Assembly: GCA_913052135.1 (NCBI GenBank)
Contig: CAJXDY010000007.1
Location: 4,141 to 68,140, forward strand
Source: an uncultured Acidobacteriota bacterium
GTDB lineage: Bacteria > Acidobacteriota > Vicinamibacteria > Vicinamibacterales > UBA823
Reading direction: 5' to 3'
Length of the DNA stretch: 64,000 nucleotides
The translations under genes and the position numbers were made by a program. The notes beneath the pieces are model-generated. The model ran no database searches. It saw nothing but the letters and a program-made list of their open reading frames with translations, and was not told the DNA's origin. Position 1 is the stretch's first letter; the number at the start of each line of letters is the position of its first letter. Positions 7,113 through 31,433 of the stretch are shown in pieces.

Positions 7113-7729
7113 TTCCAGCCGTAGACGTCAAGCGTTGTTCGGCCGGATTGCAATTCTTGCACGATTAACTTTTCTTTAGTTTCCCGTTGCTCGGCTGCCA
7201 CAAGAACATCAGCCATCTTTTTGGCAGCAATGACGACCACACCATCAGCATCGCCCACCACAAGATCGCCTGGTTCAATCGATACTCCACCGATTGTTAT
7301 CCGTTCGTTGATGGCCCCAGGAGCCTTGGCCTGCTTTTTCGTGCCTTGAATACACAAGCCGCGTGCCCACACCGAGAAACCAGAGGCCTCTAAGTCTAGC
7401 CTGTCACGCACGCAACCATCGATGACGAGGCCACCTAATTGTTGTGCCACGGCGGCGGCGGTCATGACACCACCCCAATACCCGAATTCATATGCGCCGC
7501 AAACGTCGACCACCAGGACATCACCCTTTGACGCAGCTGCAAGGCCCCTGTGTAACCACAGGTTATCACCCGGAGCTGCCTGGATTGTTACAGCTGGTCC
7601 ACACAGCCGAGCTTCTTTCACGATTGGTGCGATCGCAGAAGGCAGTGCCCCGATTTGGCCGGCTGCTTCGTGCAACGTCGCTGTTCCAAGACTTGCGGCA
7701 ATCGTAACGAGTGCTTGATTTTCCATCAC
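7109..7729 (-). CDS. RraA / HMG-CHA aldolase-fold protein (paralogue 1 of 3)
   Basis: TATLHEA..., GDVLVVD, GGVMTAAA and VIDGCVRD blocks are characteristic of the RraA/class II aldolase fold. There are 4-nt overlaps with both neighbouring genes. Confidence 0.8.
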   Translation of the reverse strand: MMENQALVTIAASLGTATLHEAAGQIGALPSAIAPIVKEARLCGPAVTIQAAPGDNLWLHRGLAAASKGDVLVVDVCGAYEFGYWGGVMTAAAVAQQLGGLVIDGCVRDRLDLEASGFSVWARGLCIQGTKKQAKAPGAINERITIGGVSIEPGDLVVGDADGVVVIAAKKMADVLVAAEQRETKEKLIVQELQSGRTTLDVYGWK

Positions 7730-8394
7730 GATTTCGTTTGGTGGCGTTGTAAATCGAAGTATTTGAACTGCTGACGAGCTTGATCGAGGCGCATACCGTC
7801 CTCGACCGCCTTCCGGATCCGATTCTCAGCTGTTTCAATATCCTGCGCAAGCGCTATCACCTCAGCCGCCCGTTCTTCAGGCACTGCAACGACACCGTCA
7901 GCATCGCCCAGCAATAAGTCGCTAGGTTTCACGTTAGCGCTACCGATCGACACTGGCACCTGAAGCGCTTCAAGTTGGACTCGATCTTTCCCGGTACGCA
8001 TTGACCAACCGCGACTAAAGATTGGGTACTTGAGTTGCAAGCTCAGCGCTATGTCACGACAGTGGCCGTCAATCACAGTCCCGCCGACGCCGCGGCGGTT
8101 TGAGACGAACGTTAGAATATCTCCCCACACTGTTGCGTCCGGTCGGCCAGCATTGTCAATTACCACCACATGACCTTCGGGGACATCGTCGATGTAATCA
8201 CCTACAGTGCCTGGGTCGGCTGTCACTGGAATTGTCCGCATGGTAAAGGCTCGGCCGCATAGCCGAAAGCTTGGGTCGAGTGGTTTAATACCTAGACATT
8301 GTCCGCCAATACCAAGTCGATCCAGTGCATCACTCACTGTTGTCGTTGACAATTGCTGAAGTTGCTCTACATGCTCATCTTGCACGGGACTCAC
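7726..8394 (-). CDS. RraA / HMG-CHA aldolase-fold protein (paralogue 2 of 3)
   Basis: LSTTTVSDALDRLGI, GHVVVIDN, VWGDILT and VIDGHCRD blocks. 4-nt overlaps on both sides. Confidence 0.8.
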   Translation of the reverse strand: MSPVQDEHVEQLQQLSTTTVSDALDRLGIGGQCLGIKPLDPSFRLCGRAFTMRTIPVTADPGTVGDYIDDVPEGHVVVIDNAGRPDATVWGDILTFVSNRRGVGGTVIDGHCRDIALSLQLKYPIFSRGWSMRTGKDRVQLEALQVPVSIGSANVKPSDLLLGDADGVVAVPEERAAEVIALAQDIETAENRIRKAVEDGMRLDQARQQFKYFDLQRHQTKS

Positions 8395-16478: not shown

Positions 16479-16538
16479 CGAACTGCCATAACGAAGCCTT
16501 GTCAACGCCCGTTGGGCTTGCTATACCTTCGGCATTCG

Positions 16539-17633
16539 ATGCCCCGCAATGCTGAGGTAATTCGTCAGTGGAATATCCTGCGTGAGATAGAAGCGTCTCA
16601 TTGGACGACGATCAATGAGTTAGCGCGCAAGATGGAGGTGACGACACGCACCATCCGAAGAGACCTCGAAGCGCTTCAGATGGCAGGGTTTCCTCTATTC
16701 GATGAACTGATTGAGGGGAAGCGGCACTGGAAGCTTGATGCTCGTCCATTAAAGCTCCTTGGCAATGTAGGCTTTACGCTGTCTGAACTGTGCGCGCTTT
16801 ACTTCAGCCGAACACTCCTTGAGGTTTTGTCTGGCACACCGTTTTCACAGGACCTTCACAATGCTTTTTTGAAGCTTGAAACTGTTCTGACTCCCCGCAT
16901 GCGACAGTTCCTCGATCGGTTGCCGACCGTGTTGCAAGCAAAGTCAGAACCAATAAAGAAGAAAATTGTTGACAGCGGCAAACTTGAGGAAACGGTAGCT
17001 AAACTCTTGGATGCTACATTGAGACGACGGCAGACCACAATTTCCTACCACTCCTTCTCAAGTAACCGCACAAAGGAATATCTCGTCGAACCGTACCGCC
17101 TCGTCTATGCGGAGGGTGGCCTCTATCTCGTTGCGTACGTGCCCGAGTATGCTGAGATGCGGACATTTGCTACTGAGCGGGTCAAGCACTTGTCGCTTTT
17201 AGACACGACATTTGAACCGACGCAAGGCTTGTCACAGGAATTATTCAGTCACTCCCTTGGTGTTAACCAAGGTAAGCCCGAATCTGTGACGATTGAATTT
17301 GCTGACCGGGTCGCACCGTATGTGCGCGAGCGAGAATGGCATCCTTCTCAACGTATCTCCGAACACCCAGACGGGTCAGTCAGTTTATCGTTGCAAGTCT
17401 GTCTCGACCGGGCGCTAACTCGTTGGATTCTTGGATTTGGTCCACTAGCACGTGTCGTGTCACCGTCTCATCTTGCCGAACGGATCGTGGGTGAGCTTGA
17501 AGGGGCACGCGAACGGTATGCGCTCCAAGCCGACCTGGATATAGAAAACAACACTAAAAAACAGGAGAGTTCCGACCACAGTGTTTCGTCGATACCTCAT
17601 GGACCTGACACTTCAAAAGAGGAATGTCCATGA
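16539..17633 (+). CDS. HTH + WYL domain transcriptional regulator (YafY/PafC-like)
   Basis: wHTH (TINELARKMEVTTRTIRRDLEALQMAGFPL) followed by a WYL block (YLVEPYRLVYAEGGLYLVAYVPEYAEMRTFATERV). Start moved to ATG 16539. Confidence 0.8.
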   Translation: MPRNAEVIRQWNILREIEASHWTTINELARKMEVTTRTIRRDLEALQMAGFPLFDELIEGKRHWKLDARPLKLLGNVGFTLSELCALYFSRTLLEVLSGTPFSQDLHNAFLKLETVLTPRMRQFLDRLPTVLQAKSEPIKKKIVDSGKLEETVAKLLDATLRRRQTTISYHSFSSNRTKEYLVEPYRLVYAEGGLYLVAYVPEYAEMRTFATERVKHLSLLDTTFEPTQGLSQELFSHSLGVNQGKPESVTIEFADRVAPYVREREWHPSQRISEHPDGSVSLSLQVCLDRALTRWILGFGPLARVVSPSHLAERIVGELEGARERYALQADLDIENNTKKQESSDHSVSSIPHGPDTSKEECP

Positions 17634-17703
17634 CTGTCAGTTTGGCATTTGTCACCGCCGGCGTAATCCGCGACACTAGTAACACTATTATTGGAGGGCA
17701 TTC

Positions 17704-20364
17704 ATGAAACGGTCGATTCACGCATTCATCATTGCAGTATTGGTTGCTGCTGGCGCTTCTGTTCTAACCACGCAATCCGCCGTACCGACACCCGAGAGTG
17801 TCATTGGTTGGGCGCCGTGTGCCGATTACAAGTTGGCGACCTATGAACAGATTGATACCTATTTTCGTGCGCTTGCGGACTCAAGTGACCGGATGCAACT
17901 AATCGAAATTGGCAAAACGGCAGAAGGCCGTACGCAGACGATGGCCATAATCTCGTCGGAAGCCAATATGCGGAATTTGGACCGCTACAAGGAGATTGCG
18001 CGAACGTTGGCACAAGGTCAGGTGAGTGAGACAACGGCTCGGGCACTTGCTAACGAAGGAAAAGCTGTGGTCTGGATTGACTTTGGCTTGCATTCCACCG
18101 AGGTCGCACATGGTCAGACAGCACCGTGGATGGCGCATAACGCGGTCTCAGATGAGTCGGAAGAGATGCGGAATATTCGTGACAATGTGATTTTTTTGCT
18201 AGTGCCGAATATGAATCCTGACGGGACGACATTAGTCGCCAATTGGTACATGCAGCACGTTGGCACCGAGTTCGAGCATGCGTCACTTCCGGAGCTTTAT
18301 CAGAAGTATGTTGGGCACGACAACAATCGCGACTGGTATATGTTTAATCAACCTGAATCGCGAAATGTGGGTCGGCAACTGTATGAGGAATGGTTTCCGC
18401 AGATTATCTACAATCAACACCAGACCGGTCCGTTTCCATCGCGAATTTTTATTCCTCCATTCGCCGAACCTGTAAACCCCAACATTCCAGCGCTTGTTAT
18501 GCGTGGTATCAACGCCGTTGGGTCAGCGATGGGCCGTCGCTATGATCAAGAAGGCAAGACCGGCGTGATTTCACAGATTGGATACGATACTTGGTGGAAC
18601 GGTGGCATGCGCACGGCCCCCTATTATCACAATATGGTGGGTATCCTGACTGAGGCGTCTCACGCGTCGGCGACACCAGCAACCTACGATCGCCAGCGAT
18701 TTCCTCCACGGTTCTCTAACGGTGAATCAACAACCGAACCTTCGACTTTTTATCCCAACCCGTATCTTGGTGGTGAATGGCATATTCGAGACACATGCGA
18801 ATACATGCTAACTGGCTCGATGGCCGTACTTGATATCGGTGCCAAGCGACGGGTGGAATGGCTGTACAACATCTATCAAATGGGTCGAGACGCGATTGCG
18901 GCGGGTGAGGATGAGACCTACGTTATTTCCCTCAACCAGTGGGACCCGGGTACGGCGATTAAGTTAGTGAACGTACTCCGCCGCGGAGGCATCGAAGTTG
19001 ATCGTGCAACAGTTGACTTCATATTGGATGGGATTGAATATCCTTCCGGCAGCTTTGTGGTGGCCGGGGCGCAGGCATTCCGCCCACACCTGACGGATTT
19101 ACTTAATCCGCAGGTCTATCCCGATCGCCGCCTCTATCCGGGTGGTCCTCCAGACCGGCCGTATGACATCACTGGGTGGACTTTACCGTTCCAAATGGAT
19201 GTGAACGTTGCGAAACATTCCGGTCTTGGTAATCAGCGAGCCGAAGTAGCACTTGAACCGGTGGTGGGATTAGCCCAGCCGCCGAGTCACTCGATGCCTG
19301 ATCAACCGGCAGGCGCCTATGTCATCGACACTCGTGCGAACGATGCGTTTATTGCGGTGAATCGATTACTCGCCGCGGGCGAAACAATTTATCGTACGAC
19401 TACAGTCGTTGATGAAGGAGTGACATATGACCAATGGGGAAATCCGGTAGATACTGGTGTATGGCCTGCTGGAACGTTCTTGGTCGCGGTTGGCCTAAAC
19501 ACGCACGCTCGCGTGGCCGACGCTGCATCATCGCTTGGTCTCACGATTAGTGCTCTGGATGCTCTGCCTTCGACTGGTACCGTTCAACTTACGACGCCGC
19601 GGATTGGTCTCTATCACGCCTGGGGCGGCAACATGGACGAAGGGTGGACCCGTTGGCTTCTGGAACAGTTCGAATTTCCTTACACGAGTCTGCACGATGC
19701 CGAGGTACGCACAGGAAATCTCTACGATCGGTATGACGTAATCGTCTTACCGGATGCGACCTACCAGAGTATGCTGCACGGTTTGAGTGCTGAGCGAATG
19801 CCTGTCGAGTATACGGGCGGTATGATGATCGCTGGTCTGGCTAATTTGCACGAATTCGTGACGGCGGGCGGTACATTGGTTGCGATGGACACGGCGACGG
19901 AGTTGCCATTGGAGATTTTTGATCTGCCAATTAGTGATGTGACTGTGAGCCAGAGCGATTCCGACTATTACATTCCTGGAACGCTGTTGCGTATGGCTGT
20001 TGACAACACTCATCCACTTGCGTTCGGGATGCCAGAAGAATCGACGGCATTTTTTGCGCGTAGTCCAGCGTTTACGATCGGTCGCGCCCCAAGCCGGGCT
20101 GAGCGCTGGACGGGAACGAGTTCCAAGTCTCCTGAATCTATCCGCACGGTCGCGTCCTACCCATCGTCCCCAGACGAACTACTGAAGAGTGGATGGTTAT
20201 TGGGCGGAAACGTGATTGCTGGCCGCGCTGCCGTCGTTGAGGTTGCCATTAAAGAGGGACGCATCGTGTTGCTAGGATTCCGTGTTCAACATCGCGCACA
20301 ATCACACGGCACTTTCAAACTATTATTCAACTCGTTATTGATTAGTGATATCGAGGCGAACTAG
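17704..20364 (+). CDS. Large exported M14 family zinc carboxypeptidase-like protein
   Basis: Sec signal (AFIIAVLVAAGASVLTTQSA) and an M14 HxxE block (GLHSTEVAHGQ) with NPDG downstream. GGAGGG SD upstream. There is a long C-terminal extension. Confidence 0.8.
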   Translation: MKRSIHAFIIAVLVAAGASVLTTQSAVPTPESVIGWAPCADYKLATYEQIDTYFRALADSSDRMQLIEIGKTAEGRTQTMAIISSEANMRNLDRYKEIARTLAQGQVSETTARALANEGKAVVWIDFGLHSTEVAHGQTAPWMAHNAVSDESEEMRNIRDNVIFLLVPNMNPDGTTLVANWYMQHVGTEFEHASLPELYQKYVGHDNNRDWYMFNQPESRNVGRQLYEEWFPQIIYNQHQTGPFPSRIFIPPFAEPVNPNIPALVMRGINAVGSAMGRRYDQEGKTGVISQIGYDTWWNGGMRTAPYYHNMVGILTEASHASATPATYDRQRFPPRFSNGESTTEPSTFYPNPYLGGEWHIRDTCEYMLTGSMAVLDIGAKRRVEWLYNIYQMGRDAIAAGEDETYVISLNQWDPGTAIKLVNVLRRGGIEVDRATVDFILDGIEYPSGSFVVAGAQAFRPHLTDLLNPQVYPDRRLYPGGPPDRPYDITGWTLPFQMDVNVAKHSGLGNQRAEVALEPVVGLAQPPSHSMPDQPAGAYVIDTRANDAFIAVNRLLAAGETIYRTTTVVDEGVTYDQWGNPVDTGVWPAGTFLVAVGLNTHARVADAASSLGLTISALDALPSTGTVQLTTPRIGLYHAWGGNMDEGWTRWLLEQFEFPYTSLHDAEVRTGNLYDRYDVIVLPDATYQSMLHGLSAERMPVEYTGGMMIAGLANLHEFVTAGGTLVAMDTATELPLEIFDLPISDVTVSQSDSDYYIPGTLLRMAVDNTHPLAFGMPEESTAFFARSPAFTIGRAPSRAERWTGTSSKSPESIRTVASYPSSPDELLKSGWLLGGNVIAGRAAVVEVAIKEGRIVLLGFRVQHRAQSHGTFKLLFNSLLISDIEAN

Positions 20365-20385: not shown

Positions 20386-21342
20386 CTACATCGTGGTTGC
20401 GCCCTGTGCGTTGACTGGTCCGACATGTGCGTCCGAGTCGAGATTGGCAGCGTCTCGGAAGGCCTCTTGCATGGCCTTGGCAATCTCTCTGGCGGTTGTT
20501 TCGGCTCCTGCAAAGGCGAACAATGAGGGACCAGCGCCAGATATCGAACACCCGAGTGCTCCGCAATCGCGGGCGGCTTCCTTCACTTCAGCTAGACCAG
20601 GGATCAGTTCTGTCCGCACGGGTTCTACCAGTCGGTCGACAATGCTTCGACCGAATTGCTCAAGGTCATTTCGATGCAGCGCGTCAACGAGTGCGCCAAG
20701 GTTTCCGAGATTCCCTACGGCGTCGGCCAGCGTATAAGTGCGCTCACTTACGAGGCGACGTGCCGCCGCAGTCGAGACTTCACAGTGCGGATGCACAACG
20801 ACGACTTGAAGCGAGGTGGGAATGGGTAAGTTAATAAGTTCCAACGGCTCGTAACTGCGAATAAGGACGATACCGCCCAACATGCTGGGAGCGACGTTGT
20901 CAGCGTGCGGTGTTCCCGCAGCGACTTGCTCGCCTACCAACGCACTCGCGACCAGCGCTGTTCGTGTGAGCGGACGGCCAAGTAGTTCGTTGGTCGCAAA
21001 GGCTCCGGCTACAGCACTCGCACCGGAACTGCCCAGCCCGCTGGCAAGTGGCGTCTGCTTGTGTAGTCGAAGACAGATACCGCGATGTTCTGTCGGCACT
21101 TGGTTATCTGCTTGAACACGTCGGAGAACATCGGCAGCGGCAACGGCGGCCACATTGCGTGCTGCGTCGTACGGTAATGCTCCACCGTCCCCAGTAATTT
21201 CAAGAATGGTAACGCCTGCTGTGTCGCACCACTCGGCTTCCACCAAGTCGCCAGGTTGCGGCAACGCAAGACCAATGACATCAAACCCTGGTCCAAGATT
21301 TGAAGCACTTGCTGGAGCGAACACACGGACTTTGTTCTTCAT
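20386..21342 (-). CDS. thrB: Homoserine kinase
   Basis: GHMP kinase blocks VFAPASASNLGPGFDV and PLASGLGSSGASAVAG. Start moved to ATG 21342 (MKNKVRVFAPAS), because the longer ORF-track N-terminus looks non-coding. Confidence 0.85.
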   Translation of the reverse strand: MKNKVRVFAPASASNLGPGFDVIGLALPQPGDLVEAEWCDTAGVTILEITGDGGALPYDAARNVAAVAAADVLRRVQADNQVPTEHRGICLRLHKQTPLASGLGSSGASAVAGAFATNELLGRPLTRTALVASALVGEQVAAGTPHADNVAPSMLGGIVLIRSYEPLELINLPIPTSLQVVVVHPHCEVSTAAARRLVSERTYTLADAVGNLGNLGALVDALHRNDLEQFGRSIVDRLVEPVRTELIPGLAEVKEAARDCGALGCSISGAGPSLFAFAGAETTAREIAKAMQEAFRDAANLDSDAHVGPVNAQGATTM

Positions 21343-21767
21343 CTCTCTCAGAGTAACAGAATGAAGTGGAGAGCGACACGCCCAGTCGCCGCCGTTTCTG
21401 ACCAGTGGCATTGGTTCGACTTGGAGTCTTCTTCGCCTGGTTGAGTTTCTGGAATAGGCGTCACAACTGATGCACTAAGTCTGCAAAGATCCGGCACAGG
21501 ATTATTTGTGCACCAGAAAAATTGACCCACACTTACCAAGACCTATTCGCCGGCGAAACTTATATTTTCCAGTAACTTACGTGGAAATTTCTCGATCAAA
21601 AAGTCGGGCCAAATTTTTAAAATGATTTTCTCGGTGCGTTGTTAAGTAGCATTCCATCGCGTGGTCAGTCTAGAATGCATAACTCTGGCTTTAGTGCTTA
21701 ATTGACTTGGCGCTGAAGCGGAACTTTTGATTCGTTTTGAAGTGAAGATGTTTTTGAGGAGGATGTT

Positions 21768-22940
21768 ATGTCGCTCTCGCGTCGCGCATTTGTTCGCAGA
21801 TTAGGAATCAACCGAGCCAGTTCGTTTAACGGTGGATATATCGCCGCCCGAGGACGCGAGGCTATGGTTGCAGAGATGGCGCCAGGTGCGTTTAACGAAA
21901 GTCTCCTGCTGCCGCCTGAAGGCGACGAAATTCGCATTAGCAGTAATGAGAACCCGGTGGGTCCCGGCCCAGCAGCGTTTGAGGCGTTAGTCGAGGCCTT
22001 AGACGAAGGCGCCGGTCGTTATCCGACCAACGCGCGTCCTGGAATCGGAGATCTGGTGTCGCTTCTCGCCAGCAAGTATGGCGCAGAAAGACAGAACGTC
22101 ACGATCGGGACAGGCTCTGGTGAAATCCTCGAAAATGCCACCAAGGCGTTCACTGGACCGAACCGAGCACTGGTCACGGCTGATCCTTCGTACTTGCAGA
22201 CGGTAGGAGTTGCTCGGCAGTTCGGTTATCCGATCAAGACCGTACCGCTCGATGCCAATCTTCGCTTGGACTTGACTGCGCTGGCTAGCGCAGCCAAGGG
22301 CGCTGGGATGGTCTTTATGTGCAACCCGAACAATCCAAGTTCCACGGTGGTGGGAGCATCGGATGTTGAGGCATTTGTCGCAGAAGTGCGGCGCGTCTCA
22401 CCTGAAACCTACATCCTCATTGACGAGGCGTATCACGATTACGCCACGGACCCGAATCACCAGACGGCCATTCCACTCGCACTGCGAACGCCGCGTGTCT
22501 TTGTCGCACGGACGTTCTCGAAAGCGTACGGGATGGCTGGTTTACGACTGGGTTACGCGGTCGGCCACGCCGATACCATCGGAATTCTGTCTCGCTGGAC
22601 ACACGTGTTCAATACGAACAACTTTTCGAATGCAGCGGCTGTCGCATCGTTGAACGACCCGGATAATCTCGCCCAAGAAGTTGCGCGCAACACGGAAGCG
22701 CGTAACTACACGCGGAAGTTTTTCACCGATGCCGGTTATGAATCTGCTGACTCGCAGACGAACTTTCTCTTCGTCAATCTTGACAGACCGGCGAGTGAAT
22801 TTCGCGCTGCATGCGCTGAGCACAACGTGCACGTCGGTCGCGATTTTCCACCAATGGAAAAAACACACTGTCGGATCTCGATTGGCACAATGGACGAGAT
22901 GCGCAGGGCTACGGAAGTTTTCAAGCAGGTGCTGGCGTAG
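21768..22940 (+). CDS. HisC-like class I/II PLP aminotransferase with twin-arginine-type N-terminus (paralogue A)
   Basis: GAGGAGG SD. N-terminus MSLSRRAFVRRLG. Core blocks SSNENP, CNPNNPS, DEAYHDY and TFSKAYGMAGLRLGY (PLP lysine). Confidence 0.85.
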   Translation: MSLSRRAFVRRLGINRASSFNGGYIAARGREAMVAEMAPGAFNESLLLPPEGDEIRISSNENPVGPGPAAFEALVEALDEGAGRYPTNARPGIGDLVSLLASKYGAERQNVTIGTGSGEILENATKAFTGPNRALVTADPSYLQTVGVARQFGYPIKTVPLDANLRLDLTALASAAKGAGMVFMCNPNNPSSTVVGASDVEAFVAEVRRVSPETYILIDEAYHDYATDPNHQTAIPLALRTPRVFVARTFSKAYGMAGLRLGYAVGHADTIGILSRWTHVFNTNNFSNAAAVASLNDPDNLAQEVARNTEARNYTRKFFTDAGYESADSQTNFLFVNLDRPASEFRAACAEHNVHVGRDFPPMEKTHCRISIGTMDEMRRATEVFKQVLA

Positions 22941-22957
22941 ACGCACAGGCGTCTACG
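22936..22957 (+). other. Intercistronic GC-rich stem-loop between the two aminotransferase genes
   Basis: CGTAGACGC-ACAG-GCGTCTACG is a 9-bp stem with a tetraloop that overlaps the TAG stop of paralogue A. No U-tract follows, so it is not a classical terminator. Confidence 0.3.
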
Positions 22958-23042
22958 TGGAGTGAGTTGGGTTAAGTAGAAGTGAACAAACGTTCTGTCT
23001 GGGCAGGCACAACGGCCCGGAAAGTTTTTCGAGGAGGATGAC

Positions 23043-24212
23043 ATGTCGTTTTCACGACGCGCGTTTGTAAAGACTGTTGGGCTTGGCGGCGTAGCAGCAT
23101 TTTCGGGCAGCTATATCCCGCGGGCTTACGACCTACCAGAGTTTTGGACAGCAGAACTGCTGGCACAGGAACGTCCACTTTTACTACACAACAACGAGAA
23201 CCCGGCGGGTCCTGGCGAGCGAGCGCTCGCCGCGGCACGTGGCGTCCTCGGCGAGAATGGCGAAGGCGTCGGTCGCTACCCCTTCGCTGAGGCGAATGGG
23301 CTCTCGCGGGCCATCGCTGACCGTTTTGGTGTCGCACCGGCGAATGTGGTTCTTGGCTTGGGGTCGACGCAGGTTCTGCGCACGGCCGTGCAGGCGTATA
23401 CGTCGCCCATGAAACCGCTTGTGACGGCAACACCGACCTACGAAGAATGCACCCAATATGCGGAACTGATCGGATCACCTTTCACCGAGATCGGTTTAAA
23501 CGACAAGATGCAGTTGGATCTCAACGAAATGGCAGCAGCGGCACGGGAAGGTGCTGGACTTGTGTTCTTGAATAATCCGAACAATCCGACTGCCACGGTA
23601 CATGGAGAAGACGCCGTGATGGCCTTCATCGATGACGTGCTGACTGGTTCACCAGACACGACGATTCTGGTCGACGAGGCCTATCACGACTACGTCACCG
23701 ATGCGAGTCACAGGAGTCAAATCTCAACGGCACTGACGAATCCGCGGGTGATTGTGGCACGGACCTTCTCGAAGGCACATGGTATGGCCGGGATGCGCGT
23801 CGGCTACGGCATCGCTCATGAGGATACCGTGCGAGAGCTAATGCCATGGCACAGTTTTAACACCTTGAATGCTCTTGGCATTGCTGCAGGAACTGTGTCC
23901 ATTGGGGATACAGCGCGACTTGAAGCTGAATCCGTACGGAATACCGAGGCTCGCCAATTTACGATTGACTGGTTTAAAAACGCCGGTTTTGACGCGACTG
24001 ATTCGCAGACGAATTTCATTTTCGTCAATACGGGTATGGCAGCGCAGGAATTCCGCGATGGTGCTCGGGAAAATGGCGTGGCCGTTGGTCGCAACTTCCC
24101 ACCTTACGAAAAGGAGTGGGCACGCATTTCTATCGGGACCATGGGCGAGATGCGTCAAGCGGTCGAGGTTTTTGCGAAGGTTCTCCGGATCAACGCGACT
24201 GCAGCGGCTTAA
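23043..24212 (+). CDS. HisC-like class I/II PLP aminotransferase with twin-arginine-type N-terminus (paralogue B)
   Basis: GAGGAGG SD. N-terminus MSFSRRAFVKTVGLGGVAAFSGSY. Core blocks HNNENP, NNPNNPT, DEAYHDY and TFSKAHGMAGMRVGY. By eye it is roughly half identical to paralogue A. Confidence 0.85.
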   Translation: MSFSRRAFVKTVGLGGVAAFSGSYIPRAYDLPEFWTAELLAQERPLLLHNNENPAGPGERALAAARGVLGENGEGVGRYPFAEANGLSRAIADRFGVAPANVVLGLGSTQVLRTAVQAYTSPMKPLVTATPTYEECTQYAELIGSPFTEIGLNDKMQLDLNEMAAAAREGAGLVFLNNPNNPTATVHGEDAVMAFIDDVLTGSPDTTILVDEAYHDYVTDASHRSQISTALTNPRVIVARTFSKAHGMAGMRVGYGIAHEDTVRELMPWHSFNTLNALGIAAGTVSIGDTARLEAESVRNTEARQFTIDWFKNAGFDATDSQTNFIFVNTGMAAQEFRDGARENGVAVGRNFPPYEKEWARISIGTMGEMRQAVEVFAKVLRINATAAA

Positions 24213-24359
24213 GAGTATCTCCGTTTACTGATCTTGCGCACCGATCAACCAGTATCCGTGTACCGGTTCTGGATATACGCTTCTTCCTACGCATCCGCTC
24301 ACCTGTAGGTGGTTCGTACTCGGCGACAGAGCAGCCCGAGGGCTGATCAATAATCTCCC

Positions 24360-25706
24360 ATGAGCCAACCAGCGCCAGCACGGCTATCGCGGTCAATCAA
24401 TCTTACGCAAACGACGGCCATGGTGGTCGGGACCATTATTGGTGCGGCGATTTTTGTACAGCCTACCGAAATCACCAAACTCGTTCCGTCTTTAGGCGGG
24501 GTGGCCTTGATTTGGTTGCTCGCGGGAACATTAACTTTTTTTGGAGCGTTAGTATGCGCAGAACTCGCCTCCGCCTTTCCTCGCACTGGTGGCGTGTATG
24601 TGTTTCTGAATGAGACGTATTCGCCAGTCTTCGGATTTTTGTGGGGATGGGCGATGTTCTGGAGCATGCATTCCGGCATCCTTGCCGCCGTGGCCGTGGT
24701 GTTTGCGCGGTATCTGGATTATTTCATTCCGCTTGGCGACACGGGCATTCAGTTCGCGGCCGCCGGGGCCATTCTTGTTCTTTCAGCTGTGAATTATCGG
24801 GGCGTTGCCCACGGCAGTCGCCTACAAACGTTGTGCACGATCATTAAGGTATTGGCTATTTTTCTGATGATCGTAGTGGGCATGACGATGGTCTCCGGTG
24901 ACGCGGCTGCGGTTGGGACCAGCAGTAGCCTCGATGTGACCAGCACCTCTCCTGTCGACATTGTGCAGGCTCTCATTGCAGGATTGTTTGCGTTTGGTGG
25001 ATGGCACATGGTGACCTACGCCGCCGGTGAAACAATCGACCCAACGCGAAACATCCCTCGTGCGCTTATGTATGGATCGATTATCGTAACCGTCTGCTAC
25101 ATCGCCCTTAATGCGGTCTACATGTATATCTTGCCCCTCGATGTTGTTATTACTTCAACACGCGTCGCGGCTGACGCCGCGGATGTTGTGGTCGACGGCG
25201 GCGCCACGTTTATATCCGGCCTCGTCCTTCTCTCAACTTTTGGGGCCGTGAGTGGAATCATTTTGGCTGGACCTCGAGTTTACTTTTCGATGGCACAGGA
25301 TGGCGTGTTGTTCCCTTGGGCCGGAAAGGTGCACCCGGTCTACCGAACACCGCATCTGGCCATCGTGTTGCAAGGGGTCTGGGCGTCTGTGTTGGTGTTT
25401 ACCGGGTCGTATCAACAACTGTTTTCTCGCGTCATTTACGTGGAGTGGATTTTCTTTGGCATGATGGCTTGTGGTTTATTCTTGCTTCGTCGTCGCCCAA
25501 GTTACGCGCCGACTTATCGGATCAAGGGCTACCCGATGATTGCGGGACTTTTCGCCTTGTCTGCTGCCGTCATTGTCATTCAGCGTTTTATAGCTGAACC
25601 CTTGGAGGCAATTATCGGACTTGGTATCGTCCTCGTGGGCGTTCCTGTGTACTACTTGTGGCCGACTCATCGAAAAGGAGAAGCGACTCTTCGTGGCGAT
25701 CGTTGA
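24360..25706 (+). CDS. APC-superfamily amino acid permease
   Basis: 448-aa polytopic ORF. INLTQTTAMVVGTIIGAAIFVQP and TGGVYVFL blocks. It is a paralogue of the permease at 625-2028. Confidence 0.85.
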   Translation: MSQPAPARLSRSINLTQTTAMVVGTIIGAAIFVQPTEITKLVPSLGGVALIWLLAGTLTFFGALVCAELASAFPRTGGVYVFLNETYSPVFGFLWGWAMFWSMHSGILAAVAVVFARYLDYFIPLGDTGIQFAAAGAILVLSAVNYRGVAHGSRLQTLCTIIKVLAIFLMIVVGMTMVSGDAAAVGTSSSLDVTSTSPVDIVQALIAGLFAFGGWHMVTYAAGETIDPTRNIPRALMYGSIIVTVCYIALNAVYMYILPLDVVITSTRVAADAADVVVDGGATFISGLVLLSTFGAVSGIILAGPRVYFSMAQDGVLFPWAGKVHPVYRTPHLAIVLQGVWASVLVFTGSYQQLFSRVIYVEWIFFGMMACGLFLLRRRPSYAPTYRIKGYPMIAGLFALSAAVIVIQRFIAEPLEAIIGLGIVLVGVPVYYLWPTHRKGEATLRGDR

Positions 25707-26670
25707 TTTTCATAACCACTATTACCCGCCCACATACATCGATGCCGTTCGAGGTGGTGTCAGTTCCCTGAAGCATACGACAGACGATGAGGGCAATCCG
25801 GTGTTGTATTACCCGGGTGACTACAATGTCGTGGTGCCAGGGCATCGCGATATCGAGTTTCGCGAGGCTGTCCTGATCGAGCAGGGTATCGATAAGCAGG
25901 TACTCACCTTCACATCGCCTGGCACCCATGTCGAGACGCCGAAGGTTGCTGCGAAATTCGCTAGTCTTGTGAATGATGCGCTGGCTGAAATTAAAGCCAC
26001 GCGGTCTCGGTTTACCGCACTTGCGACCCTCCCCCTGAATGACCCGGATGCCTCCGTCAAAGAATTAGAGCGGGCGATGACCAGCCTCGGGTTTAAGGGA
26101 GTGATGTTGTTCAGTAATGTGAATGGCGTCGCACTCGCCGACGAACGCTATTGGCCGCTCTACGAGAAAGCGAACGAATTGGGTGCCGTCTGCTACATTC
26201 ACCCCATTCATCCAGTCGGCGTGGAGTCTATGACCGAGTACTGGCTGATGCCACTTGTCGGGTTTGTTCACGACACTACCCTAGCCGCTGCCAAGTTGGT
26301 GTTTACCGGAGTTGCCGAACGCTTTCCTCGTATCCGTTGGGTTCTGGCGCATTTGGGCGGCACGATTCCCTATCTCGCCGAACGGCTCGACCGTGGATTT
26401 CGGGCCTTCAAGGATTGCCGGCAGCACATTAGTGAACCACCGAGTACTTATTTAAAGCGATTTTATTACGACACCGTGAATTTCGATCAGCGAGCCTTAG
26501 AATTGGCTATCGAGTTTGCCGGTGTCGATCAGGTCCTGGCGGGCAGTGACTATCCCCACATGATCGGGAGCCTTGATCAGATGCAGGACAGTATTGCCGC
26601 GCTGACCATTTCTGAGAAGGACAAGGCGGCCATTCGGTGGGACAACACCGCCAAGCTACTCGGGTTTTAA
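25693..26670 (+). CDS. Amidohydrolase_2 (ACMSD/LigW-like decarboxylase family) protein
   Basis: VDFHNHYYP (HxH), IHPIHP, AHLGGTIPY and AGSDYPH blocks. Start placed at in-frame GTG 25693, giving a 14-nt overlap with the permease. The ORF-track start at 25621 lies inside the permease. Confidence 0.75.
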   Translation: MAIVDFHNHYYPPTYIDAVRGGVSSLKHTTDDEGNPVLYYPGDYNVVVPGHRDIEFREAVLIEQGIDKQVLTFTSPGTHVETPKVAAKFASLVNDALAEIKATRSRFTALATLPLNDPDASVKELERAMTSLGFKGVMLFSNVNGVALADERYWPLYEKANELGAVCYIHPIHPVGVESMTEYWLMPLVGFVHDTTLAAAKLVFTGVAERFPRIRWVLAHLGGTIPYLAERLDRGFRAFKDCRQHISEPPSTYLKRFYYDTVNFDQRALELAIEFAGVDQVLAGSDYPHMIGSLDQMQDSIAALTISEKDKAAIRWDNTAKLLGF

Positions 26671-26684
26671 CGCCACGGTCGCAG

Positions 26685-27017
26685 TCAGCGTCTATTCGAT
26701 GACTGCGACATGCTGACGACATACTCGTAGATCAGTACGATTTGTTCATCCGTGACATTTTCTTCAGCTTGGCCAGGCATTTCTCCGATCCCTTCGCGGA
26801 CGATCCTCGTGAAGGCTGCGAAGTCGAACTCCACCGGAATAAGTGAAGGCCCTTTCGCTCCTCGGGCGCTGGGCCCGTGACACATCACGCAACCAGCTTC
26901 GGATAATGCCTTCTTCCCTGGAGGGGTTTCGGGCTGTGCCCAGAGAACTCCAGCGCCGACTACCAAGCACACTATCAAGGTAAAGAGGCCGTAGCCCACA
27001 GTGCGCGTACCTTGCAT
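26685..27017 (-). CDS. Small exported class I c-type cytochrome
   Basis: Signal peptide (GLFTLIVCLVVGAGVLWAQP), a single haem motif C-V-M-C-H and a distal Met block (GIGEMPG). Its ATG overlaps the upstream TAA (TAATG). Confidence 0.8.
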   Translation of the reverse strand: MQGTRTVGYGLFTLIVCLVVGAGVLWAQPETPPGKKALSEAGCVMCHGPSARGAKGPSLIPVEFDFAAFTRIVREGIGEMPGQAEENVTDEQIVLIYEYVVSMSQSSNRR

Positions 27018-28282
27018 TAGAACGTTTCAGCCTTCAGTTTGAATGTCGCGTCCAATTCCGGGTCGGTTGCTTGGCCCGTGACGCGCCGTGCGACGTAATC
27101 ACCGAGCATGATGCCGTGCTTGTATCCGTGACCTGATCCTCCGCCGACAATCCATACGTTCTCCATGTCGGGATGGTGATCGACGATGAAATGATCGTCG
27201 ACGCTCGTTTCGTACTGGCACACGCGAGATTCAAGCAGTGGCTGACCGCGCAGAGCGGGGAACCACTTGTCCAGAAATTCGCGGGCACGCCCGACTTCAT
27301 TCTCGGTCACCAGTCGTTCATCCGTGTCCGGGTCGAACGGAATGCTGTCGTAAACCGTCGCAAATTTCAGGCCGCGTCCCTCGATGCTGGGAAACCCGTA
27401 CACACCAGCCATTGAAAAATTCGGACAGTTTGGGTGGGTGAATCGATTGTCATCGGGCGGAACACCATACCAAAATGTCGACCGTCGAGGTGTCACGAGG
27501 CGATCTTTCATGGGATTTGGGAGCACTTTCGGCAACCAGGGACCACATGCGAAAACGAAGTTTTCGGCGGCAATTGTTTGTCCCGTTGACAACGTTATCT
27601 CCTGCAACTGTCTGCCCGCTTGCCGTCCCGGCTTCGCTTTTGCGAGGATGAACTCGCCACCTTTGCGTTGGAAGTCCTCGGCTACGGCGAAACAGCCTCG
27701 CCTTGCCATGAGTACGCCGGTACTGGGCAAATAATACCCAAAATCAATACCGTCGAGATTGAACTGGGGATACTGCCGGGCAACCTCATCGTGTTCGATG
27801 ACTTCGTTTTCGACTCCGAGCTTAGTGAGCACGGTCTGTGTGGCCCGGAAGGACCGAGACCCCCCTTCCCGGTACAACGAGAGCTGACCAGTCCGGTAGA
27901 ACAATGGGAGTCCACCCCACTCTTCCTGCCGCGCTTCCCAGCGCTTAAAGGCTTCAATCACCCACCGCGTATAAATTTCTCGTTCACCATACCCGGCACG
28001 AATCTGCCTGGTTTCACCACCCGAGGCCGCACGGGCGTTTCCTGGTCCGTAAGCATCGATCAACGCGACCGACAAGCCCATCTCACGCAAGTAGAGAGCC
28101 GCCCATCCGCCGAAGGCCCCGGCGCCGATAACGGCGACGTCTACGGTCGATGGGTTGGCGGCTTGACGATGGTTTATTGACTTCATAGGTTCGCTTGCCT
28201 CCAGGCGTTTTCCGGCCAAGGCCATTAAGCTAATGTTTCCACCGCTATATTTCAGAAATCGGCGGCGATTTAATTTGTCCAT
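27017..28282 (-). CDS. Tat-leader FAD-dependent oxidoreductase (DAO / sarcosine-oxidase-like family)
   Basis: MDKLNRRRFLKYSGGNISLMALAG matches the RRxFLK Tat consensus. Dinucleotide fold VAVIGAGAFGGWAALYL...D, then SGGETRQIR. Start moved to ATG 28282. Confidence 0.8.
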   Translation of the reverse strand: MDKLNRRRFLKYSGGNISLMALAGKRLEASEPMKSINHRQAANPSTVDVAVIGAGAFGGWAALYLREMGLSVALIDAYGPGNARAASGGETRQIRAGYGEREIYTRWVIEAFKRWEARQEEWGGLPLFYRTGQLSLYREGGSRSFRATQTVLTKLGVENEVIEHDEVARQYPQFNLDGIDFGYYLPSTGVLMARRGCFAVAEDFQRKGGEFILAKAKPGRQAGRQLQEITLSTGQTIAAENFVFACGPWLPKVLPNPMKDRLVTPRRSTFWYGVPPDDNRFTHPNCPNFSMAGVYGFPSIEGRGLKFATVYDSIPFDPDTDERLVTENEVGRAREFLDKWFPALRGQPLLESRVCQYETSVDDHFIVDHHPDMENVWIVGGGSGHGYKHGIMLGDYVARRVTGQATDPELDATFKLKAETF

Positions 28283-28436
28283 GGATTGCTCTCCGTCAGT
28301 TGATACTGCCCACACGTTTCGAAAATTCGAAACGATTCATAGGGTATCATCAGATCAGCCGAATAAAGTCGGCTACGTAACTTCTATTGAGTTGTCCGTG
28401 TCCACACCCGATCGCACAATTAATGGAGCATGCACC

Positions 28437-28853: not shown

Positions 28854-31433
28854 TCACTGCGGCGCTGTCCGCGGCGGTGCTGGCACTGGGGGCTGGTTTT
28901 TTTCGAGGTTTAATTCCTTGATATCCGGATCCCACTGGAGATCGCCGAGGAGATGTTCGACGAAGTACTCTGCCCGCAACCAGAACCAGTAATCTGCCAT
29001 CTCTCGATAACTATGGCGTTGACCTGGGAACATAAAGAAATCAAAACGTTTGTTCGCCTTAATCAGCGCTTCCGCCATTCTCAAGGTGCCCGCCGGGTGC
29101 ACGTTGTTATCGATGTCACCCGTCGTCAGCAGTAAATGCCCCTGTAGATTCGCTGCAAGATCCGAATTCTTATCGATGTCATACTCGAAACTCACTTCGC
29201 CGTCTTCGTCCATCACTTCCTTGATCCCGTGATGTTTCTCGGACCAAAAGCTGTTGTACACGTCGTTATTGTGATTACCAGACGACGACACCGCTACCTT
29301 GAATAAATCAGGATAGACGAGCATCGCTGCCGTCGACATAAATCCACCGCCTGAATGACCATAAATGCCGACACGGTCACGGTCGATAAAGTCATGGCGG
29401 TCGGCGAGCTGCTCGATGGCAACCTTCTTGTCAGCAAGTCCATAGTCACGGAGGTTGCCGTACCCATAGTTGTGATACCACTTGGAACGCGCGGGATGGC
29501 CACCGCGGTTTCCGACCGTTACTACCACGAAGCCAAATTGGGCCAGCGCTGTTTCGTAGCGATTCGTCGAAAATGACTTCGAAACTGATTCTGTCTGAGG
29601 TCCCGGGTAGACGAATTCGATAATGGGATACTGTTTCGTCGGGTCGAAGTCGAATGGCTTATACATGACCCCGTACAGGTCCGTGATGCGATCAGCGGCC
29701 TTCACGCTGTAAGGCTCTGGAAACTGATAGCCAGCTGCTAACAACTGGGAAAAATCCGCCTCCTCTAAGTCGAGTATTTTTCTTCCGTTGGCATCAATCA
29801 CAACCGAACTCGGAACCGTGTTGACCCGCGAGTAATTGCCGACGAAAAATCGGTTGGACTCCCCTACCTGAACTCGATGGTCAAAATTACCCGGGTCGAG
29901 GAGTTGAACGCCACTGCCGTCAAGATTGACTCGATATAGGTGCTGGTAGTAAGGGTCTTCCTGGGGCTCACGGGCATTTGCCATGATGTAAACCACACCC
30001 TCGGACTCATCGATGCCCACCACTCGTCGAACGGCCCAGGGGCCTTCGGTTAAGCGATTTTGCAACGTGCCATCCGAGTTGTAGCGGTAGAGATGTGCCC
30101 AGCCGTCTCGCTCTGACCACCAGAGCAAGTCGCCTGACTCTAGGCGTTCGAGTGGCTGCGTCTCCACGTATGTGTTCAATTCTTCTTCGAGCAGTACGCG
30201 GACTGCACCTGTCGTAGTGTCCACAACACAAACCTCGACCCGGTGCCGATCACGGCTTTGACGCCAGAAATGTAACTCGGTTGAAATGTTCGAGAGCCAG
30301 AGGTTCTGGTCGGGTTCATCGCTATCCGGATATTCGAATATCCGAGCGTTCCAGATCCCCAGTTGCTGATCTTTGAATTTTTCGGTATCGACCGTTAGCA
30401 TCTGCTGGGTTGCGAAATCGTAGATGCGAAGTTCGCGTTGGGTGATCACTTCTTCTCCAGCCATGTCGTACTTGTAGGTCTCCAGTTCGGGGCGCTTGTT
30501 TCCCACGGAGTGAATGACCCACAAGTCACCGGTCTGACGCTGATCTCGGCGCACGATCGCGAAGCGCTGCGAGTTATGAGCCCAGGAGATGTTGGCGTGT
30601 TTACGCTTTTCGCGGTCTTCTTCTTTCTCTATGTCAGTTTTACCGCGAGCAGTGTCAGCGTAGCTGTAGTGTTCTTCGCCGTCTGTCGAGAGCTGGACTT
30701 CTTCCACTTCAATTTTCTCTTCCGCCTCGTCCGCCTCGTCGCCATCCTTACCGCGTCGCGCATCGAGAATCTGCTGGTAGGCTTCGCTGGTCATCGTGTG
30801 AAGGTTATGATTGCGGGCAAAGACAACCACCTGGCCGTCAGGGGACACGCTAGCCCACGCAGGGTGATTATCGGGGCCTTCCCAGTCTGCAAGTTGCCGA
30901 ACACTTCGAGTTACCACGTCGTATTCGAAGTGAAATACCTGCTTCTTGACGGTTTCCTCTTGATCGGTGTCGCCGTCATCTTCCTCTTGCTGTTCTTCTT
31001 CGGTTTGGTCGATGTCGGTGCGTTCTTCGTCTTGGGACGACTCGACTTCAAACTGGAGTGTGTCCTCATCGATAAACTTGATGCTTCGAATTGGCAAGTG
31101 CTTTCCGTCCCAGGGATCCTTCGTGAGTCGCGTGAGTTCGGCAGCAATACGGTCGTTATCAAATAGCAGTGTCTTGGTGCCTTGCGCCGGGTCCACTAAG
31201 TAGAATGATTTACCCTCTGAAGTTTCCCACTCGTACCAGAAGCGGTCACTTCCCTTGATCCAATGAGGGTTAGTAGTGGTGCTATAGATGAGCCGGTTCA
31301 ACTTGTACGGCGCGAATCGACTTGCAAGTTGGTAGTTTGCAGTCAGCGCCGCTTGATTTTCCTGGCCGGCGAACGTTACTAAGGGAAGAGTTAGCAAGAG
31401 CAGGAAGCCAATCATCCACGTATCAAGTTTCAT
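28854..31433 (-). CDS. Exported S9 family serine peptidase (DPP-IV-like propeller + prolyl-oligopeptidase catalytic domain)
   Basis: Signal peptide (IGFLLLLTLPLVTFAG), nucleophile elbow GIYGHSGGGFMS, and C-terminal GDIDNNVHP / FPGQRHS blocks carrying the Asp/His of the triad. Contains acidic insertions. Confidence 0.85.
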   Translation of the reverse strand: MKLDTWMIGFLLLLTLPLVTFAGQENQAALTANYQLASRFAPYKLNRLIYSTTTNPHWIKGSDRFWYEWETSEGKSFYLVDPAQGTKTLLFDNDRIAAELTRLTKDPWDGKHLPIRSIKFIDEDTLQFEVESSQDEERTDIDQTEEEQQEEDDGDTDQEETVKKQVFHFEYDVVTRSVRQLADWEGPDNHPAWASVSPDGQVVVFARNHNLHTMTSEAYQQILDARRGKDGDEADEAEEKIEVEEVQLSTDGEEHYSYADTARGKTDIEKEEDREKRKHANISWAHNSQRFAIVRRDQRQTGDLWVIHSVGNKRPELETYKYDMAGEEVITQRELRIYDFATQQMLTVDTEKFKDQQLGIWNARIFEYPDSDEPDQNLWLSNISTELHFWRQSRDRHRVEVCVVDTTTGAVRVLLEEELNTYVETQPLERLESGDLLWWSERDGWAHLYRYNSDGTLQNRLTEGPWAVRRVVGIDESEGVVYIMANAREPQEDPYYQHLYRVNLDGSGVQLLDPGNFDHRVQVGESNRFFVGNYSRVNTVPSSVVIDANGRKILDLEEADFSQLLAAGYQFPEPYSVKAADRITDLYGVMYKPFDFDPTKQYPIIEFVYPGPQTESVSKSFSTNRYETALAQFGFVVVTVGNRGGHPARSKWYHNYGYGNLRDYGLADKKVAIEQLADRHDFIDRDRVGIYGHSGGGFMSTAAMLVYPDLFKVAVSSSGNHNNDVYNSFWSEKHHGIKEVMDEDGEVSFEYDIDKNSDLAANLQGHLLLTTGDIDNNVHPAGTLRMAEALIKANKRFDFFMFPGQRHSYREMADYWFWLRAEYFVEHLLGDLQWDPDIKELNLEKNQPPVPAPPRTAPQ

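Follow-up and report, generated by a model that had tools for sequence, protein, structure and literature searches.

What do two adjacent aminotransferases need export leaders for, and why is only one of the two leaders complete? The question is raised by a 64,000-nucleotide stretch of DNA (here called the window; contig CAJXDY010000007.1 of assembly GCA_913052135.1, positions 4,141 to 68,140 of the forward strand) from an uncultured Acidobacteriota bacterium, in which two tandem open reading frames (ORFs), A and B, encode HisC-like pyridoxal phosphate (PLP) aminotransferases that both start with the twin-arginine (RR) motif of the pathway for twin-arginine translocation (Tat). We lean towards the view that A and B are an ancient, co-inherited paralogous pair in the Tat-leader branch of the HisC-like enzymes, the branch of PtaA and PRK09105, and that the pair would work outside the cytoplasm after joint export. 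For B itself, export through Tat as a periplasmic aminotransferase is highly probable from its leader; that A crosses the membrane with it, as an A:B heterodimer, is a more tentative proposal to which we give somewhat less than an even chance. The two genes and the elements that mark their starts and active sites are the following.

21768..22940, + strand: ORF A, upstream paralogue (A-clade), HisC-like class I/II PLP aminotransferase of 390 amino acids
23043..24212, + strand: ORF B, downstream paralogue (B-clade), HisC-like class I/II PLP aminotransferase of 389 amino acids
21756..21763, + strand: Shine-Dalgarno sequence GAGGAGGA of A, 4 nucleotides (nt) 5' of the A ATG, read directly
23031..23038, + strand: Shine-Dalgarno sequence GAGGAGGA of B, 4 nt 5' of the B ATG, read directly
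22521-22523, + strand: codon of the Schiff-base Lys252 of A
23772-23774, + strand: codon of the Schiff-base Lys244 of B

The proteins begin with MSLSRRAFVRRLGINRASSFNGGYIAARGRE (A) and MSFSRRAFVKTVGLGGVAAFSGSYIPRAYDL (B) and are 46% identical. NPNNP, DEAYHDY and FSKA(Y/H)GMAG are common to both, and NENP lies at residues 60-63 of A and 51-54 of B. A preliminary description of this DNA had presented two tandem HisC-like ORFs with MSxSRRAFV starts and full core motifs, and the coordinates, the motifs and the matches to PF00155 all agree with it (150 bits for A and 142 bits for B against a Pfam cut-off of 19.7, with profile positions 4-360 of 361 aligned). Both proteins have a complete fold-type-I aminotransferase core. 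The nearest solved structure by sequence is 3ly1, a putative HisC of Pectobacterium (6e-46 for B, 4e-42 for A); its chain begins near the NENP motif and is thus uninformative on the leader. An AlphaFold2 model of A (mean predicted local distance difference test score, pLDDT, 84.6; predicted template-modelling score 0.84) is confident over core residues 52-390 and has pLDDT values below 50 at residues 1-47. Foldseek searches with this model placed 3ly1 and HisC entries on top, with E values of 1e-32 to 1e-22 and template-modelling (TM) scores of 0.7-0.9 (0.80-0.90 for 3ly1). The catalytic and PLP motifs of A and B align with those of 3ly1 and 4r2n, and N186-P190, D219-Y222, S251-K252, R260 and R369 are invariant among 43 A-clade sequences. 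The Asn of NPNNP, the Asp and Tyr of DEAY, the Lys of SK, the Arg after this Lys and the C-terminal, carboxylate-binding Arg are taken by us to play the PLP-enzyme roles generally assigned to them in this family.

Among curated family models, the top NCBIfam match of both ORFs was NF006580 (PRK09105; A 261.5 bits, B 251.2 bits, cut-off 444), followed by two equivalog models, NF051461 (PtaA; A 233.3 bits, B 214.8 bits, cut-off 500) and TIGR01141 (hisC; A 229.6 bits, B 211.4 bits, cut-off 276.55), and neither ORF reached any of these cut-offs. Residue 3 of the ORFs aligns with position 5 of the PRK09105 profile, so that the profile takes in the leader. Ten relatives from other genomes behaved alike, with PRK09105 as top match from profile position 4-5 (239-316 bits, none at the cut-off) and PtaA scores of 211-266 bits. 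Because the best curated matches fall below their cut-offs, A and B are best regarded as an unmodelled sister group of PRK09105 and PtaA. Homologues number thousands in the databases, where the sources label them "histidinol-phosphate aminotransferase" or "histidinol-phosphate transaminase", and public calls of A-type proteins often begin at a later Met that hides the RR (P0247, P0219 and P0208; loci L085 and L086). As far as can be judged from sequence, the family is systematically mis-annotated as HisC and the true start of A-type genes is frequently trimmed. In the window the starts that include the leaders are well supported, because a Shine-Dalgarno sequence stands before both ATGs and B has no other Met 5' of its NENP motif. 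The GAGGAGGA element includes a perfect AGGAGG and is also kept before the A-type gene in L082, L001 and L002.

The two leaders divide as follows.

21768..21794, + strand: n-region of the A leader, MSLSRRAFV (R5, R6), with M1, R5 and R6 invariant and S4 at least 90% conserved
21795..21848, + strand: decayed h-window of the A leader, residues 10-27 (RRLGINRASSFNGGYIAA), interrupted by Arg, longest uncharged run 11
21849..21863, + strand: RGREA segment of A (R28, G29, R30, E31, A32), after the candidate cleavage site I25-A26-A27/R28
23043..23111, + strand: predicted Tat signal peptide of B, residues 1-23, with the n-region MSFSRRAFVK followed by the h/c-region TVGLGGVAAFSGS

The motif, sought within the first 35 residues, reads S4-R5-R6-A-F-V-R in A and S4-R5-R6-A-F-V-K in B. 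We scored the h-region by a rule of at least 13 uncharged residues soon after RR, which is the core TatFind criterion, in our own implementation. B passes with 16 uncharged residues (TVGLGGVAAFSGSYIP) within 20 residues of RR, whereas A fails with 11 (ASSFNGGYIAA). With the curated Tat-signal hidden Markov model TIGR01409 (cut-off 16.7 bits), B scored 22.0 bits and A gave no match. Among the controls, E. coli SufI scored 24.8 bits, the experimentally validated leader of PA2531 scored 15.9 bits and an intact leader of a singleton copy was unmatched, and the last two results indicate that the model is conservative. The Pfam model TAT_signal (PF10518) matched neither leader and matched the SufI control weakly, and is thus too insensitive here. 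Possible signal-peptidase sites are I25-A26-A27/R28 in A and S21-G22-S23/Y24 in B, where Arg27 follows; a clear AWA site is present in more distant B-type homologues and in most of the best 120 B homologues. Tat targeting of B is very likely on these sequence features. The preliminary description had judged the h-region of the B leader plausible and the A leader possibly degenerate, and both judgements hold.

Leader conservation was counted in the 120 best database homologues each of A and of B. The pattern [ST]RRxF[VL]K with a Gly/Ala-rich uncharged stretch occurs in all 120 B homologues, and an RR leader motif in 114 of the 120 A homologues, which makes 234 of 240 for the two sets together. 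Orthologues that start at a later Met and have no leader would speak against an export leader, and two of the six A-type exceptions, P0219 and P0208, were checked: in both, the RR lies in frame 5' of a mis-called start. We had considered these two leaderless proteins as an end state of hitch-hiking on B and rejected this, since they are gene-calling artefacts.

Leader decay in upstream tandem copies

The alignment of the 43 A-type proteins, which are 54-70% identical to A, separates the parts of the leader. M1, R5, R6, R28, G29 and E31 are invariant, and conservation reaches at least 90% at S4, A27 and A32, whereas positions 7 to 26 include none that is conserved. Across relatives of A, the stretch from RR to RG(R)EA runs from a normal 17-22 uncharged residues down to sequences such as FRNLGVDRTDSLSRDFLTS, and the close relatives have 4-7 uncharged residues with D, E and R spread throughout (for example FRNLGVDRTDSLSRDFLTSRGREA). 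Within its subclade, the A leader of the window has decayed least, with a run of 11 uncharged residues. Codon changes between the window and the closest genome, that of Acidobacteria bacterium UBA823 (L002), follow the same division: 12 non-synonymous and 2 synonymous in the h-window, 2 and 4 respectively in RGREA. Judged from these alignments, the odd leader of A is a conserved state of its whole clade and not a quirk of the window genome.

A scan of one genome per species gave at least 583 confirmed relatives. The best 80 of these come mostly from Acidobacteriota (Vicinamibacterales, "Marinacidobacterales"), Gemmatimonadota and Longimicrobiales. Near-identical relatives are present in Tara Oceans and other metagenomes. 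The survey sample comprised 81 related loci and the window (82 in total), and held 51 same-strand tandems and 30 singletons. The tandem arrangement of the preliminary description is therefore a recurrent one, and its order is always A then B. The h-region rule failed at very different rates in the three classes of gene.

Upstream tandem copies: 35 of 50 fail
Downstream tandem copies: 3 of 49 fail
Singletons: 1 of 26 fails

The four failures outside the upstream class (4 of 75 downstream and singleton copies) are borderline, each with 12 uncharged, strongly hydrophobic residues. The contrast between upstream and other copies was tested in two ways (Fisher 7e-15, Mann-Whitney 8e-8), neither of which is corrected for phylogeny. 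The character of the stretch differs too, as the h-window of the main A clade is 16% charged with a mean Kyte-Doolittle (KD) hydropathy of 0.02, against 1-3% charged residues and KD values of 0.9-1.0 in B and singleton copies.

While the h-region decayed, the twin arginine stayed. Of the 50 upstream copies, 48 retain it; the remaining two are a copy that reads SHR and one that is truncated where its locus ends. The SHR copy (L003, about 6940-8164; MSLSHRALMRGHGIGAAPSSAFIGARGRE) is the only upstream copy seen to have lost the twin arginine, and its downstream partner keeps a full leader. The codons of the two arginines vary across the 48 copies, with 4-6 synonymous forms in use, so it is the protein sequence RR that is conserved. 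The position +2 of the motif is more relaxed, with F replaced by L in 20 of the 48. In upstream copies, a median of 21 residues separates the first Arg from the xRGxE motif (interquartile range 20.5-22).

Synonymous codon usage over the 48 copies also ruled out MSLSRR as a purely messenger RNA feature. Within one lineage, codons 1-6 of A (ATG TCG CTC TCG CGT CGC) and the preceding GAGGAGGA are nevertheless nucleotide-identical in the window (21768-21785), L001 (10001-10018) and L002 (7001-7018), while the A proteins are only about 69% identical, a hint that translation initiation of A may be under an additional constraint in this lineage.

A neighbour-joining tree of the mature domains groups all downstream copies in one clade (B) and nests the upstream clades among the singletons, with A and B subtrees that are mirrored in their branching. 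The single B clade and the mirrored subtrees point to one old duplication followed by co-inheritance. The genes of a pair are closely spaced, with a median gap of 29 nt between A stop and B start and an overlap in 7 of 49 pairs. By parsimony, nine of nine changes in leader state fall inside A clades (39% of the tree length), and none falls in the B clade or on singletons; under equal rates this distribution would have a probability of about 2e-4. We conclude from the sequence comparisons that h-region decay is confined to upstream copies that have a B partner, and that the SRR n-region, the spacer of about 21 residues and RG(R)EA are under selection.

Proposed co-export and its alternatives

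Class I aminotransferases are obligate dimers, and hitch-hiking of a partner through Tat is established elsewhere; together with the restriction of decay to partnered upstream copies, these points make co-export our favoured explanation. A and B would fold and load PLP in the cytoplasm and assemble there as an A:B heterodimer, which would then pass through Tat on the complete signal of B. Structures of the Tat system place the n-region of a signal on TatC, with the h-region held in a clamp of TatB and lipids. They show the receptor as a trimer, (TatBC)3, in which each TatBC unit offers one site. Speculatively, the RR n-region of A could thus dock at a second TatC site of the trimeric receptor. 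In the periplasm the pair would transaminate an amino compound.

A series of observations weighs against this scheme. First, the kept n-region of A is something simple hitch-hiking does not predict, because classical passengers are free of any signal. The preliminary description had suggested that A might travel as a hitch-hiker in an A:B heterodimer, and its proposal gains from the finding of decay only in upstream tandem copies but leaves this n-region unaccounted for. Second, the 11 uncharged residues of A in the window are near the threshold of 13, and this leader might work by itself. Third, the bulk of the decay lies within a single large A subclade, which brings the effective count of independent events to about nine rather than 35, and 11 of 12 members of a second A subclade, as well as a few of the main one, have intact leaders despite having a partner (fully intact A-clade leaders occur in L017, L044, L052, L026 and the L005-L053 subclade). 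Fourth, mirrored trees and tight linkage would follow from co-inheritance in one operon and are no proof of contact between A and B. The leader evidence also has its weak points: neither leader has a textbook AxA signal-peptidase site, and TIGR01409 misses the intact singleton leader and puts that of PA2531 just under its cut-off. Finally, the permease and amidohydrolase genes that follow the pair in the window stand beside only about nine of the 51 tandem loci, about 40 of which have neither, and the regeneration of cofactor and supply of keto acids in the periplasm are unsolved even for PtaA (PMC6206403).

The first alternative is that the A leader is still an autonomous, weak Tat signal, and that A and B are exported separately, whether as homodimers or in any other combination, as two periplasmic isoenzymes with different substrates. 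Selection on RR, on S/T at position -1 and on spacer length in A would be expected if so, as would the intact leaders of some A-clade members, and the near-threshold leader in the window fits as well. Tat h-regions are, moreover, naturally weak in hydrophobicity, and RR binding and hydrophobicity partly compensate for one another. However, the 4-7 uncharged residues of the close relatives, as in FRNLGVDRTDSLSRDFLTSRGREA, could not be held in the clamp of TatB and lipids, and TIGR01409 finds nothing in A. Decay is also absent from singletons and B copies, which have to export themselves. We consider separate export unlikely.

Ranking just behind it, and also improbable in our view, is the possibility that A is no longer exported and keeps its N-terminus as a remnant peptide for chaperone binding or folding control, in the manner of NarG; A would then be cytoplasmic and B periplasmic, and in this lineage the permease would link them: after transamination outside and uptake, re-amination or another conversion would follow inside. 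A decayed h-region beside a conserved n-region is what such a remnant would look like, functional remnant Tat peptides are documented, the F to L relaxation at +2 in 20 of 48 upstream copies fits, and the operon of the window does include genes for a permease and for an amidohydrolase of the cytoplasm. A permease is missing, however, from most tandem loci whose A has decayed, and three loci in which the amidohydrolase has an RR leader of its own point to a wholly periplasmic pathway. The two genes are tightly coupled, often with overlapping stop and start, and the described remnants sit on redox enzymes and not on PLP enzymes. A Pfam scan of eight genes in and around the operon found no chaperone family of the TorD/NarJ type.

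That A and B are ordinary cytoplasmic histidinol-phosphate or aromatic aminotransferases with a mis-called or coincidental RR start is very improbable: although homologues are so named in the sources, hisC is the third NCBIfam match and some gene callers start A-type genes later, the hisC scores (230 and 211 bits) stay below 276.55, strong Shine-Dalgarno sequences precede the leader-including starts and B offers no other Met before NENP, 234 of 240 homologues keep the leader as protein sequence while synonymous codons vary, the best family matches are Tat-leader families, and no his genes lie nearby.

Co-export of A on the signal of B can be extended to a bolder proposal, which we regard as doubtful: A would carry half a signal, its RR n-region and fixed spacer selected and its h-region lost, and marine and soil Acidobacteriota and Gemmatimonadota would couple periplasmic transamination to uptake and an ACMSD-like enzyme. 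If this were true, an RR n-region free of an h-region would still have a role, either in bivalent docking at TatBC or in the control of assembly before export, and the coupled pathway of transamination, uptake and ACMSD-like processing would have no described counterpart. Whatever its mechanism, the leader series is of use to the study of Tat. It runs naturally from an intact to a fully decayed h-region with the RR kept (the SHR of L003 apart), which offers a test of the n-region's own role, and it bears on how the pathway handles dimers that carry two signals.

Neighbouring genes

Two further genes follow the pair in the same orientation.

24360..25706, + strand: APC-superfamily amino-acid permease (LAT-like), 448 amino acids, PF13520 180 bits
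25693..26670, + strand: Amidohydro_2 protein (ACMSD-like metal-dependent decarboxylase/hydratase family), 325 amino acids, PF04909 145 bits, without a leader

The best NCBIfam match of the permease is TIGR00911 (L-type amino acid transporter), at 240 bits and under the cut-off. The best matches of the amidohydrolase in the PDB are ACMSD (5e-40) and then gamma-resorcylate and 5-carboxyvanillate decarboxylases. Its start is a GTG at 25693 behind AAGGAG, which gives a 14-nt overlap with the permease stop; independent gene calls in close relatives have the same 325-residue protein and the same overlap. The succession of an APC permease and an Amidohydro_2 gene with this overlap, as given in the preliminary description, is exact, and the four-gene block recurs in relatives. 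L001, UBA823 and the Tara relatives keep it, along with the genes for HtpG, a WYL regulator, an M14 peptidase and a GHMP kinase on its 5' side, and it is also present in the more distant L018, L027 and L048. A permease lies 3' of the pair in the window, L001, L002, L018, L027, L048 and L082-84.

In three loci without a permease, an Amidohydro_2 gene stands directly 3' of the pair (L005 9406-10563, L044 9323-10483, L080 9421-10614), and its product starts with an RR leader (MQRREFLQTVAFAAPLV, MDRRGFLQAVGAVGAAS and MKRREFLKTVSAVGAVAS, respectively). These leaders predict periplasmic members of a family normally regarded as cytoplasmic. In this small sample the amidohydrolase is leaderless in six loci with a permease and carries an RR leader in three loci without one, and the complementary pattern suggests a step that follows the aminotransferases and takes place either extracellularly or, once uptake has occurred, within the cell. 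In the marine lineage, a product or co-substrate of the periplasmic transamination would enter the cell through the adjacent APC permease, to be processed in the cytoplasm by the ACMSD-like amidohydrolase, and permease-free lineages would export the amidohydrolase itself through Tat. Whether the two genes are functionally linked to the pair is, in our estimate, evenly balanced. The ACMSD-like neighbour had also raised the idea of a kynurenine pathway, which was dropped as a general reading since a tryptophan 2,3-dioxygenase lies near the pair in L086 alone.

The genes around the pair in the window, with the two that follow it, encode HtpG, the WYL regulator, the M14 peptidase, the GHMP kinase, the permease, the amidohydrolase, a DAO-family oxidase, a cytochrome c and an S9 peptidase; no pvd genes and no his genes lie in the neighbourhood of the window pair. 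The DAO-family flavin adenine dinucleotide oxidoreductase (26685-28315, - strand) is nearest to N-methyltryptophan and sarcosine oxidases and has an RR leader (MDKLNRRRFLKYSGGNISLMALAG; TIGR01409 13.7 bits, below the cut-off). The stop of its gene overlaps the start of a gene for a small c-type cytochrome, and by sequence they resemble a dehydrogenase of amines or amino acids in the periplasm, paired with an electron acceptor. In the genomes that have them, these two genes converge on the aminotransferase operon. An enzyme of the DAO type could in principle supply 2-oxo acids in the periplasm. We rejected these two genes as a part of the operon, as they lie on the opposite strand and occur in the window, L002 and the Tara relatives only, and not in L001.

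On the 5' side, the WYL regulator gene and a gene for a secreted M14 carboxypeptidase of 886 residues occupy 16512-20364 (+ strand), and an S9 (DPP-IV-like) peptidase of 859 residues with a long acidic insert is encoded at 28854-31433 (- strand); both regions are syntenic in relatives. The flanking peptidases suggest a neighbourhood given to scavenging of peptides and amino acids. In 22 loci of the survey (among them L012, L014, L026, L046, L052, L057, L061 and L086, where it lies at 1078-2187) the pair is adjoined by a gene for a secreted NHL-repeat/SGL-like beta-propeller with a Sec-type signal. In about ten loci of soil Acidobacteriota this gene is directly 5' of the pair and shares its strand, so that the subclade concerned may use another accessory enzyme. 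Clustering of neighbours by stop-to-stop ORFs is noisy in loci of high GC content, where shadow ORFs abound, and only clusters confirmed by homology were kept. Further away in the window, an ORF at 62290-63621 (+ strand) also has a Tat-type leader (including DDPSRRQFIGAAVTAGLASACVSQ; 18 uncharged residues).

The spacer between A and B measures 102 nt in the window and contains one predicted structure.

22935..22958, + strand: 10-base-pair hairpin over the A stop codon (RNAfold, about -21 kcal/mol for the whole 60-nt stretch)

This hairpin is not conserved in L001 or L002 and its role is uncertain. L001 and L002 share instead a small CCCGG...CCGGG stem 5' of the ribosome-binding site of B. A scan of positions 21300-27100 for promoters and terminators found no sigma-70-like promoter and terminator-like sites at background level, and was uninformative.

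Comparison with known systems

The preliminary description had stated that no periplasmic transaminase was characterised, and this claim of novelty fails, because PtaA of the fluorescent Pseudomonas is already known as one. PtaA is described as a "normal" PLP transaminase that is transported by Tat in folded form with its cofactor and is active in the periplasm, and its discoverers found it also in bacteria that make no pyoverdine (PMC6206403). Its P. aeruginosa orthologue PA2531 is an experimentally validated Tat substrate with the leader MPALSRRSFVTLTALASSSILLSPRAFA (PMC6085387). PtaA remains the single characterised periplasmic PLP transaminase. The new features of the locus described here are that a paralogous pair is conserved and that the h-region has decayed on one side only, with the RR kept. 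The Tat-leader aminotransferase branch is large and common in Acidobacteriota and Gemmatimonadota, and the fixed A-then-B pair is present in about 50 species-level genomes; for microbial ecology, this suggests that abundant bacteria of sea and soil, as yet uncultured, carry out amino-group chemistry outside the cytoplasm.

Like A and B, PtaA has an SRRxFV leader and belongs to the HisC-like class I/II PLP aminotransferases, and the question of keto acids and cofactor is common to all three. PtaA differs in being the product of a single gene with a normal AxA leader (MPALSRRSFVTLTALASSSILLSPRAFA), whereas the window holds a pair with asymmetric leaders. The PtaA model stands, further, for enzymes of pyoverdine producers that have the pyoverdine Glu side chain as their substrate, while the pair of the window comes from a marine Acidobacteriota bacterium and has no siderophore context. 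PRK09105 (NF006580) is closer still as the best curated match of A, B and all ten relatives, with alignments that start inside the leader, but its cut-off of 444 places the pair beside it as a sister group, and its members have no assigned function. HisC (TIGR01141) has the same fold and the same NENP region, NPNNP, DEAY and SK..G.AG.R.GY motifs; A and B differ from it in scores under the hisC cut-off, an export leader of 23-27 residues and the lack of a his-operon context. PvdN, a PLP enzyme of pyoverdine tailoring, is likewise exported through Tat loaded with its cofactor, but it belongs to another PLP family, forms succinamide and is no close sequence relative of A or B.

For the leader of A, two other systems are informative. 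The molybdoenzyme NarG carries a remnant Tat peptide that, as papers citing Ize et al. (2009) report it, is export-incompetent, is kept and binds the chaperone NarJ. The N-terminus of A would similarly descend from a Tat signal; NarG, however, stays inside the cell with NarJ, while A has a partner, B, that is predicted to be export-competent. The second system is that of the established Tat hitch-hiker heterodimers (HybOC hydrogenase-2, PaoABC and the formate dehydrogenases), in which a partner crosses the membrane bound to the signal-bearing subunit. These known cases are redox-cofactor enzymes built of unrelated subunits, whereas A and B are paralogous PLP enzymes whose A:B complex is presumed, and the known passengers lack any signal, whereas A keeps an SRR n-region and a spacer of fixed length. 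The likeness lies in the division of labour between the leaders: the signal of B appears complete and the h-region of A inadequate, and the decay of A is seen only when B is present.

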